From the IMG/VR virus record IMGVR_UViG_2606217106_000020: a stretch of DNA of 41,681 nucleotides, one strand, 5' to 3'. Below, piece by piece: positions 18,001-21,000 of this stretch. Each line of letters opens with the position of its first letter. Position 1 is the stretch's first letter. Made by a program: the position numbers. Source of the DNA: a virus. Taxonomy: Duplodnaviria; Heunggongvirae; Uroviricota; Caudoviricetes.

Positions 18001-21000
18001 AGGTGCTTCTAATGAAAACCCGCTTCGGCGGGTTTTGTTGTATTGGAGTATCATGATATTACCTGGATTCCGTTTTTCTCTACGACTGAAAGAAGGCGAA
18101 GAGCGGCACCTCCCGGCCGTTTTACACCACGTTCCCAGTCTGATATCAGGTTTTTACTGACGTTGAGGTATCTGGCAAAAACAGGTTGAGACAGATGCTC
18201 TCGTTCGCGCAGTGCACGGATCCTTTCCGGAGACATTACCGGCGCTGGCTGGAGACAAGTTTCATCGAATTCTCGCATAGTCTGTTTCGTTACTGCGCCG
18301 ATATCATGAAGCGATTCCATCATTTCATGTACGGATGCAAGCGCATCACTGCGGTAATTTTTACTCATTGGGTACCTCCGTAAACTGACCCTGTAGAATC
18401 AGTTGTGCCAGTTGTTCATCTGTTAGATTGAGTACGTGAGGAGCCCCTTCCGAAATGCACTTTCCTCAGTAGCGGTTATATTTTCACGTTCATTTTTTGC
18501 GTATGCATATACGAAAAAGGCCCTTGTGCCGACGCGATAGAAAATGATTGTGCGATAACCGCCAGATTTGCCGCCACCGACTCGTGGCAGACGTTGCTTG
18601 ATAACGCCGTTACCCAGGTTTGCTGAGATAAGCCCGTTATCAGCCTGTTTAACAATTTCGCGCAGTGATTGGTCGGATATTTTGTTTTGCGTGCAAATCG
18701 CTCAAACCAGGCGTTTTTAAAAATGCGCATTTTTTGTTCCGTTATTAATGTATAACACATAGTGTTACATTGCGTAGGGATCTGCAATGCCATCAGTTTG
18801 ACAACGTCGCGTGTTCGGGGCTATATTCCTCACGCGCCAGCAAAACCTGGCGTCGGGATTAGCACCCCGGATATCGAAACGGTGCATAACCGCGCTGGCG
18901 GTTTTTTTATGCGCTAAGCACAGTCACATTCGCGATTTATGGCGGGCTGTGTGGGGGGGCCGAAAGGCTCGCCGGATGTTTCGACCGGTAGTGCTAACCC
19001 CGCACAGTTCGCCACCACGATGATTAGCACCTGACGGTGGCGAGGTAAAAATTATCGAAACGCGAGGTCATTATGGCTGTTCAAATTTCTGTCGAAAACC
19101 TTTCCCCTGTTACCTATAACCAGATCCCCGTAATTACTACTGAACTGTTGGCTCACCTTTACGGAACAAAAATCAAAAACATTTCTGATAACTTTCTGAA
19201 CAACACGACGCGATTCATGCCCGGAAAGCATTACTTTAAAATTGAAAAAAACGAATTACGCGAGTTTAAGAACAGACCCGAAACAATCGGGTTAGTTGGT
19301 AAAAATGCCCGCTCCCTCATCCTCTGGACAGAACGCGGCGCAGCCCGTCACGCAAAAATGCTCGAAACCGATCGGGCGTGGGAGGTATTCGAAAAACTGG
19401 AAGACTGCTATTTCAGCCAGGGAAAAACAGCACCAACCGAACAGCAGCCGCAGATTCAGCCACAATTCACAGCCGAAGAAATCATCCTCCTTTGCTACAT
19501 GCAGCTCTGGATGGAAAAAGCCCAGGACATCAGCAAACACCTGTATCCCATTATGAAAGAGCTGAACTCCTCATACACGAACAAGCTGTATGACATTGCG
19601 TTTGAGACCATCTACATGGTGACGAAGAACAGAGACGCGCTACTGAGGGAGGTAACACGTCTCGACATGTCAAGTTCCGTTATCCAGCGGGCCATGCCAA
19701 TGCTGAAAAGCCTGCGGGCAAGACAATTTGAATTCTGAAACTAAAGGAGCTTCGGCTCCTTTTTTGTTGGGAAAATCCAGTGAGAGGGAATAATGAACCA
19801 GACTATCTTCCTCCGAAGTAAGCAGCAGCAACAATTCGCCATTAACGCCATCCTTGCAACAACTCTCGATAAAGACAAACCCGTTACGATCCGCATCACC
19901 GATTACAAGCGGAATCTCGATCAAAATGCCAAATTTCACGCGATGGTCGCTGATATCTCCCGACAGGTTCAGTGGTGCGGCAGATGGCTAAAACCAGAAC
20001 AGTGGAAAGTTTTGTTAATCAGCGGTCATGCCGTGGCGACAAAACAGGAAGCTGATGTTTTGCCTGGTCTTGAAGGTGAATACGTCAATATCCGCGAAAG
20101 CAGTGCGCAGATGAGCGTGAAGCGTATGGCAAGCCTGATTGAGTACACAACTTCCTGGGCTGTGGAGCAGGGTGTCAGATTTACCGACAGGAGGTATGAA
20201 TGAGACGACAGCGACGAAGCATTACCGATATAGTCTGTGAAAACTGCAATTACCTTCCAACGAAACGTTCCAGAAATAAACCCAGGCCAATCCCAAAAGA
20301 ATCTGACGTTAAAGCCTTCAATTACACGGCTCACCTGTGGGATATCCGGTGGCTAAGACATCGTGCGAGGAAAACAAGGTGATTGACGTGATGATTTATT
20401 CGGGGCTATATTCCTCACGCGCCAGCAAAATCTGGCGTCGGGATTGGCGTCCTGGATAGAGACCGCGACAGATACACGCCGCGAGCGTGTTTTTTATTGT
20501 CGTATGCACGCGCACATCTGAATTATGGTGGGCTGTGTGGGGGCGGAGAGATCCGCGCCGGTCGGTTTCCCGGTTACGCCAACCCTGCACAGTTCACCAC
20601 CAGACGATTGGCGTCGTCGGTGGTGAGTTATTAAGAAACCACTCGAGGGCGTCATTATGACAACTCAAATCTCTGTTGAAACACTCTCCACGATTACTTA
20701 CAAGCAGATCCCCGTTATCACTACCGAACTTTTGGCGCACCTTTACGGCACAGAAGCTATTCGTATTCGCCAGAATCACCACGAAAACAAAGGTCGTTTC
20801 ATTGAGGAAAAACACTTCTTCAAACTTGAAGGTGAAACTTTACGTGAGTTCAAGCACAGAGTAGCTTTTAACTACTCTGTGAAAATTGCCCGTAACGTTC
20901 GCTCCCTCATCCTCTGGACAGAACGAGGCGCAGCCCGTCACGCCAAAATGCTAGAAACCGATCAGGCGTGGGATGTGTTCGAAAAACTGGAAGACTGCTA

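Follow-up and report, generated by a model that had tools for sequence, protein, structure and literature searches.

Two parallel gene-control modules, each composed of a promoter, the leader RNA IsrK, the antisense RNA C4 and an antirepressor gene (ant), lie in the nin region of an E. coli lambdoid prophage recorded as IMGVR_UViG_2606217106_000020, which was analyzed over its full 41,681 nucleotides (the window). We conclude, with a probability of about 0.8, that each unit is a self-contained cassette for the post-transcriptional control of its antirepressor, of the type represented by P1 immI and Gifsy-1 isrK. Both copies belong to the RNA families found at these loci, both show the same order of elements, and in both the pairing loops of C4 are complementary to two sets of sites, one in IsrK and one directly before ant, in a pattern that covaries among natural modules. 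Coordinates refer to the plus strand of the window unless a minus sign is given.

The family assignment comes from an Rfam covariance-model scan of the whole window with the curated gathering thresholds (isrK RF01394, 50 bits; C4 RF01695, 45 bits; c4-a1b1 RF03163, 46.7 bits). The isrK model matched at 18834..18908 (IsrK-1, 74.3 bits) and 20419..20495 (IsrK-2, 75.5 bits), in both copies from end to end (positions 1-77 of 77). C4 matched at 18935..19019 (C4-1, 72.5 bits) and 20521..20604 (C4-2, 66.7 bits), and c4-a1b1 at 18821-18873 (47.4 bits) and 20406-20458 (50.5 bits). Since both copies exceed the thresholds of all three families, the resemblance is not due to chance. A preliminary description of this DNA had proposed two promoter-hairpin-terminator units of C4/IsrK type, and every feature that it listed was found where it had been placed; the covariance-model search that it suggested confirms the family for both copies. 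Two of its assignments have to be changed. The RNA of about 75 nt, which it had taken for an antisense regulator, is IsrK in Rfam, an a1/b1 leader carrying sense-type copies of the target, and the conserved GC-rich stretch that it had called a leader is where the C4 matches lie, and is thus the C4 antisense RNA itself.

Within each copy, the two recognition sequences of C4, termed a' and b', are complementary both to a1/b1 in IsrK and to a2/b2 before ant. In module 1, a' (GTGCTAA, 18991-18997) lies in the 3' junction of C4-1 and b' (TGTTTCGA, 18977-18984) in its hairpin loop; their partners are a1 (TTAGCAC, 18859-18865) and b1 (TCGAAACG, 18874-18881), and, in the target region at 19024..19067 (+), a2 (TTAGCAC, 19024-19030) and b2 (TCGAAACG, 19055-19062). 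In module 2, a' (ACGCCAA, 20576-20582) and b' (CGGTTTC, 20563-20569) match a1 (TTGGCGT, 20444-20450) and b1 (GAGACCG, 20459-20465, with one G-U pair to b'), and, in the target region at 20608..20649 (+), a2 (TTGGCGT, 20608-20614) and b2 (GAAACC, 20635-20640). The b2 site of module 1 ends one base 5' of the Shine-Dalgarno (SD) sequence GAGG (19064-19067), and that of module 2 ends 4 nt before the SD sequence GAGGG (20645-20649). Each ant has its own SD and starts 11 nt (module 1) or 17 nt (module 2) after b2. The a2/b2 set at the ribosome-binding region of ant, which the preliminary description did not mention, completes the circuit.

Natural variation in these sites was assessed in viral contigs, which were scanned once with a scaffold pattern; this gave 120 loci, of which 118 modules, including the two window copies, were parsed. 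Of these, 59 were distinct in their functional sites, and fixed anchor windows were picked independently of complementarity. Among the 59 distinct modules, 26 combinations of 10 a' alleles with 15 b' alleles occur, indicating that the a and b codes reassort. At least seven contiguous Watson-Crick pairs connect a' with its own a1 in 58 of the 59 modules and with its own a2 in 55 of the 59, as compared with a median of three pairs in the non-own comparisons (different a' allele). With the loops permuted among modules, the mean match stayed below the observed one in all 5000 permutations, for each of a'-a1, a'-a2, b'-b1 and b'-b2. The preliminary description had supposed that the variable middle of the short transcript sets pairing specificity, and this middle does carry a1 and b1, the target copies that covary with a' and b'.

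In an independent MAFFT alignment containing one representative per allele combination, pairing reached 99.5% in the a1:a' helix and 96.4% in the a':a2 helix, and in each of them five of seven pairs had changed on both sides. Of the 17 pairs in the closing stem of C4 (99.4% paired), 6 had changed on both sides, as had 5 of 5 in P2; in slid controls the pairing dropped to about 40%. The helices of the b sites were 47-48% paired on this alignment, a low value that we attribute to misalignment, because b sites vary in length and position; the anchor-based comparison of own and non-own modules is the valid test for b. In most alleles, the pairing at b2 is at least as long as that at b1. In 71/76 modules, b2 ends (3' end) 7-17 nt ahead of the ATG of ant, and the SD is often inside b2, as in GTACGGAG, GAAAAAGGA and TAAGAGGGA.

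The two window modules differ at both sites, and since their a and b sequences are different, each C4 would recognize only its own IsrK and its own ant. Duplex energies were calculated from the loop nucleotides alone, leaving out the stem flanks, which otherwise contribute CCGG/CCGG pairing. The own duplexes have energies of -8.7 (a) and -8.4 kcal/mol (b) in module 1 and -10.0 (a) and -7.3 kcal/mol (b) in module 2, a range of -7.3 to -10.0 kcal/mol for own duplexes versus -1.8 to -4.7 kcal/mol for cross duplexes between the two. We therefore predict orthogonality of the two modules at the a and b sites alike. A search of the window for other composite C4 targets (a followed by b within 5-60 nt, either strand) returned only the a1b1 and a2b2 sites of each module; the adjacent KilAC antirepressor gene is thus not an evident C4 target. 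Among nine pairs of modules from the same genome, a sample too small to give the comparison power, one pair shared identical alleles (1/9), versus a background of 8.5%.

Several natural modules have irregular site sets. The viral contigs L004, L034, L073, L029 and L058 carry natural recombinants with mismatched sets: in one kind a1 and a' are of the GGCGT type but a2 is of the GGAAC type, in another a1 is unlike a' and a2, and in a third the ant leader past a2 is swapped for unrelated sequence. Such hybrids should leave ant unregulated, or regulated only in trans. In L028, IsrK is intact and the C4 region breaks off mid-C4 into unrelated sequence, and in L047 an intact IsrK is followed by a replacement just 5' of the C4 5' arm; both look like truncated modules giving IsrK without C4.

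Transcription of each module is predicted to start directly at the IsrK leader. The promoter of module 1 (18798..18827, +; TTGACA, 18-nt spacer, TATATT) matches the consensus at 11/12 positions and predicts a start at G18834, and that of module 2 (20383..20412, +; TTGACG, 18-nt spacer, TATATT) matches at 10/12 and predicts a start at G20419. They are the two best promoter-like sites of the 3-kb region, in which the number of such sites is not above chance (4 found vs 3.8 expected); the case for the promoters therefore rests on the score and the homologous position of the two sites and not on the site count. Both are homologous to the promoter region of Gifsy-1 isrK. The hairpin GCGCCAGCAAAA[C/T]CTGGCG begins 7 nt after the -10 hexamer, identical in both copies, and is followed by the shared segment TCGGGATT, about 25 nt of divergent sequence and a terminator. 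In IsrK-1, hairpin 1 spans 18834-18853 and hairpin 2, with a1 in its loop, spans 18854-18869. The terminators have different stems (18888-18903 plus T7 in module 1; 20474-20490 plus T6 in module 2) and occupy 18888-18910 and 20474-20496 as a whole. By likeness to Gifsy-1, IsrK may accumulate as an RNA of about 75 nt from these loci.

The minimum free energy (MFE) folds of C4-1 (-48.2 kcal/mol) and C4-2 (-44.5 kcal/mol) have the three-helix shape of the C4 family, which consists of a long closing stem plus two hairpins, one of them with a tetraloop. The preliminary description had called for a fold of these stretches with a view to compensatory changes; the family shape is reproduced, and the C4 stems covary among natural modules. 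The ends of C4 fit excision by RNase P, with AU|GG at the 5' junction and ...CCACC followed by A at the 3' end; C4-1 ends in ...GCCACC and then A, as in the tRNA-like ACCA. Processing of C4 by RNase P is known for P1/P7 (Hartmann et al. 1995), and by analogy C4 may be excised from its precursor in this prophage too, in which case mature C4-1 would be about 18941-19016 and mature C4-2 about 20527-20601.

A further element could pair with the 3' arm of C4. At 17-19 nt 3' of C4, the sequence GGTGG[C/T]GA is complementary to the 3' arm of C4, TC[G/A]CCACC; it is represented by GGTGGCGAG (19036-19044), complementary to the C4-1 3' arm, in module 1 and by GGTGGTGAGTT (20619-20629), its counterpart, in module 2. 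Its variable position is paired in 80/80 distinct modules, mostly as A-U or G-C, as G-U in 7 and never as A-C. The element and the C4 arm would form an alternative hairpin with a2 in its loop, which would compete with closure of the C4 stem. No T-run is present at this hairpin in the window modules; according to the Weinberg 2010 supplement, there are C4 loci where a terminator hairpin overlaps with the closing stem's 3' half. P1 has an equivalent of the element with one mismatch.

Three features, namely the layout, the covariation across three sites and the location of b2, argue for a mechanism of the P1 type, as follows. Transcription from the strong promoter would start at the IsrK leader, and most transcripts would stop at the intrinsic terminator to give an IsrK of about 75 nt, with a1 in a hairpin loop and b1 right after it. 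Read-through transcripts would extend across C4, which, by analogy with P1, may be released by RNase P at the AU|GG 5' junction and the tRNA-like ...CCACC(A) end. In the released C4, b' would be displayed by a hairpin loop and a' by a single-stranded junction; these stretches of 7-8 nt each would pair with a2 and b2 between C4 and the start codon of ant. As b2 abuts or covers the SD sequence, this pairing would block ant translation, and less transcript continuation would probably follow. The a1/b1 sites of IsrK, as target copies, would bind the same C4 loops, so that the balance of IsrK to C4 would decide ant expression. The Weinberg 2010 supplement credits Citron and Schuster with the idea, put forward for P1, that a1/b1 and a2/b2 compete.

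The preliminary description had also linked the units to Gifsy-1 IsrK/anrP, and this link holds at the level of all three families. Gifsy-1 was not among the matches of a BLAST search with the Rfam isrK consensus; the covariance models scored its locus at 79.3 (isrK), 48.1 (c4-a1b1) and 69 bits (C4), with the C4 match inside 'orf45', directly 5' of anrP. The Gifsy-1 locus shares with the window a homologous promoter, IsrK with its terminator, the C4 match, a2/b2 sites and a homologous antirepressor N-terminus, and it is of the same module type as several of the 59 variants. Its a allele (GGCGT) is that of window module 2, whereas its b allele is different. Gifsy-1 has one module, located after Q; the two modules of the window lie in the nin region and differ in specificity. 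In Gifsy-1 the small RNA isrJ follows anrP; the whole-window Rfam scan gave no isrJ match.

Published experiments on Gifsy-1 can be read on this map. IsrK is there a Hfq-binding RNA of about 77 nt with an additional read-through isoform, and deletion of PisrK cut the transcription of a fusion from 280 to 3 units (PMC4825925). IsrK supplied in trans raises anrP translation about 140-fold, IsrK carrying G28A or G31A is inactive in trans, and the changes C162U and C159U derepress from 4 to 484 and 926 units, respectively (PMC4825925). Mapping the published numbering onto the sites places G28 and G31 of IsrK in a1 and C162 and C159 in a', indicating that the published 'helix b-I', which has experimental support, is a1:a'; the G114-C175 pair of the published 'structure B' belongs to the closing stem of C4. 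A processed RNA of about 80 nt, STnc1160, comes from this part of the locus, and was likened by the authors to the P4 CI RNA (PMC4825925).

The suggested link to P1 c4/ant also stands, in the order of elements and in the matches to C4 and c4-a1b1. The P1 record has a promoter, a1 (7 nt), b1 (8 nt), the 77-nt c4, a2, b2 and icd-ant in this order, with a spacing like that of the window modules and a hairpin with a T-run between b1 and c4; P1 immI and the window agree in the order of the sites, in site lengths of 7 and 8 nt and in having b2 at the ribosome site. P1 scores 68.8 bits with C4, 51.0 bits with c4-a1b1 and 35.1 bits with isrK, the last below the gathering threshold of 50, and the P1-like phage D6 reaches 59.1 bits with isrK and is matched by C4 and c4-a1b1 too. 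D6 (L123 2064-2143) also has a second C4-like match, sub-threshold at 40.2 bits, about 430 nt 5' of its isrK-C4-icd-ant module. In P1, icd lies between b2 and ant, and a C1 operator is located on one of the two promoters, whereas the window modules have no icd and show no dyad common to the stretches 5' of their two promoters; the antirepressor proteins of P1 and the window are of different families. Specificity classes were first defined by the heteroimmunity of P1 versus P7. The icd gene is a detail of the P1 operon and not a requirement of the RNA families. The comparison leads us to regard IsrK as the lambdoid version of the P1 c4 leader and the window modules as immI-type circuits without icd. 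P22 offers a different solution in a lambdoid phage, the antisense RNA sar, which limits antirepressor synthesis and is made from the opposite strand, over the start of ant; unlike sar, the regulator in the window is on the same strand as its target and would pair with it via two short loop contacts.

Several points weigh against the cassette reading proposed here. The transcripts and the C4 processing of this prophage are predictions from its sequence. The b2 site of module 2 offers only six Watson-Crick pairs and ends 4 nt 5' of the SD. P1 c4 control includes a Rho-polarity step, and since no icd-like ORF was found between b2 and ant in either window module, this step is not simply transferable. 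In Gifsy-1, a1 mutations in cis lift basal expression 23- to 55-fold, and the authors of that work favour a structural switch in cis with translational coupling via orf45 (PMC4825925). The derepression by cis a1 mutations is not predicted by a pure decoy model, so that the leader may also contribute in cis, to repression or to C4 maturation.

An alternative is control by termination, as with P4 CI, in which the main effect of C4 bound to nascent a1/b1 and a2/b2 would be to end transcription early, within the ant leader or at the IsrK terminator, and not to block ribosomes. A D6 query spanning isrK, C4 and icd matches the P4 CI RNA region, and in both window copies b1 lies 6-8 nt 5' of the stem of the IsrK terminator. 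In addition, the IsrK authors raise this option for STnc1160 and describe CI, a small RNA processed from the transcript of its own targets, as pairing with sites up- and downstream of itself, and IsrK in trans lifts the long transcript about 8-fold in Gifsy-1 (PMC4825925). However, this transcriptional effect is far below the translational one of about 140-fold (PMC4825925), no antiterminator/terminator alternative conserved in both copies was found, and the location of b2 in the SD/start region in the 71 modules counted above points to the ribosome site as the target. P4 CI, by comparison, would act through transcription termination on replication genes and not at the ribosome site of an antirepressor. 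We regard termination as unlikely to be the main mode of control, although termination and ribosome blocking are not mutually exclusive.

The switch favoured for Gifsy-1 also has experiments on its side. It holds that the IsrK part of the transcript pairs with the 'orf45' region and keeps it silent, and that IsrK in trans opens this fold, so that the small ORF is translated and its ribosomes are handed to ant. Start- and stop-codon mutations of orf45 lower the activation, two conformers are seen on native gels, and cis a1 mutants are derepressed (PMC4825925). In each window copy an AUG occupies the corresponding position, at the C4 5' end: the ORF in module 1 has 31 codons (18939-19034) and stops 38 nt before ant, and that in module 2 has 33 codons (20525-20626) and stops 30 nt before ant. 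In Gifsy-1, the ORF from the C4 5' end instead reaches the anrP start in an ATGA overlap. As the window ORFs end before ant, coupling through a stop/start overlap is impossible there. The length of the ORF varies between 8 and 74 codons among 80 distinct modules; its AUG is absent in 2, the stop lies at least 10 nt before ant in 65/80, and the Gifsy-1-type overlap occurs in only 6/80. The spread in length and the rarity of the overlap indicate that the conserved entity is the RNA fold and not a peptide, and the authors themselves remark on conservation at the nucleotide but not at the amino-acid level (PMC4825925). Translational coupling thus cannot be the general mechanism, and is inapplicable to the window. 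The switch also leaves the covariation of a2/b2 with a'/b' unexplained. Moreover, double mutants of a1 and a' in Gifsy-1 regain the a1:a' pairing, with the conformer restored on gels, but not the repression (224 and 327 vs 4 units; PMC4825925), an outcome that would follow from a need for a' to match the unaltered a2 as well. We therefore hold a coupled switch in cis to be quite improbable as an account of these modules.

The proposal that the conserved blocks are protein operators in the DNA, or the mere trace of a recent duplication without RNA function, is barely credible: long identical stretches between the copies would follow from a recent duplication and the P1 c4 promoter region has its C1 operator, but at three separate sites of one strand the variable positions vary in step with each other as reverse complements, with G-U tolerated and A-C not, covariance models that score structure exceed their curated thresholds, and a comparison of the two copies revealed no dyad operator common to the upstream regions of both promoters, leaving the operator reading, which the preliminary description had itself raised, without support.

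The two cassettes sit at different positions of the nin region, as had been proposed. Module 1 is directly 5' of ninB, and module 2 is flanked by ninE and the KilAC antirepressor gene, with Q farther downstream, so that both IsrK units have a lambdoid nin/Q context upstream of anrP-type antirepressor genes. From promoter to ant start, the copies align over 314 columns with an aligner-reported mean column identity of 82%. The ORF6N antirepressor gene expected after each unit is present: Pfam finds ORF6N and P22_AR_C in both ant-1 (19073..19738, +; 221 aa) and ant-2 (20657..21340, +; 227 aa), whose proteins are 48% identical. A strong GC-rich hairpin with a T-run, an intrinsic terminator, follows ant-1 at 19743-19762 and ant-2 at 21357-21378, making each module a complete promoter-to-terminator cassette within the nin operon.

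The surroundings hold further accessory genes. The third antirepressor gene, with the KilAC domain (21409-22137, +), is directly 3' of the ant-2 terminator and has no IsrK/C4 module. Upstream of module 1 is a cluster of accessory cassettes made up of hok/sok and two toxin-antitoxin-like pairs. The hok/sok type I toxin-antitoxin locus (16783-16957, +; ORF 16895-17107) scores 110.3 bits with Rfam sok, and the identical RefSeq record places hokD here. Immediately 5' of module 1 are a Fic/Doc family toxin (17506-18000, +; death-on-curing toxin in RefSeq) and an HTH protein beside a weak RelE-like ORF (18051-18368 and 18476-18793, both -; RelE/ParE toxin in RefSeq). A possible third module at 17116-17197 (+), a hairpin with a terminator just 3' of the hok ORF, was rejected: it scores 31.2 bits with isrK (gathering 50), has no a/b sites and is not followed by a C4, and is probably a chance resemblance in shape. 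About 340 nt 3' of the Q antiterminator gene (22874-23407), Rfam STnc100 matches at full length (23746-23951, +; 165.1 bits), a position that suggests the start of the late transcript.

The region is 100% identical to that of the E. coli strains FORC_069, ML35 and NCCP15648. Of 5426 complete E. coli genomes, 2534 carry the module, at up to six places per genome; the two-module arrangement is rarer, with 18 genomes covering at least 80% of the 2.6-kb region. Module 1 has 98.8% identity to the unit upstream of ant in the Shiga toxin (Stx) phages Min27 and vB_EcoP_24B, and in at least one deposited record of an Stx phage, 'C4 antisense RNA' and 'isrK' are already annotated next to each other. The elements of the module are curated Rfam families and the finding is in this respect already known; the unified reading of IsrK and C4 and the combinatorics of their alleles are a clarification and not a new kind of system. 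What stands out in this prophage is the presence of two copies with different pairing codes that are predicted not to cross-react.

In the searchable literature IsrK and c4 are treated as separate systems, and the IsrK paper makes no mention of P1 (PMC4825925). At even odds in our estimate, IsrK and C4 are two halves of one system, in which IsrK would be a natural target mimic (sponge) dedicated to C4, 'orf45' would be the C4 gene and not a conserved coding sequence, and a two-site combinatorial code (at least 10 a alleles, 15 b alleles, 26 combinations), reassorted by recombination, would give co-resident prophages or cassettes independent control of their antirepressors. The one-circuit view suggests a fresh look at the published orf45 coupling model. 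For the window itself, it adds known RNA genes to a region where the RefSeq record has no RNA gene annotation.

Antirepressors decide the awakening of prophages, including the Shiga-toxin phages. Regarding the IsrK leader and C4 as one circuit would supply a rule for when prophages silence or release each other's antirepressors, namely that a and b must both match. If the two-halves reading is true, prophages in one cell, or two cassettes in one prophage as here, would keep their antirepressors under non-cross-reacting control.

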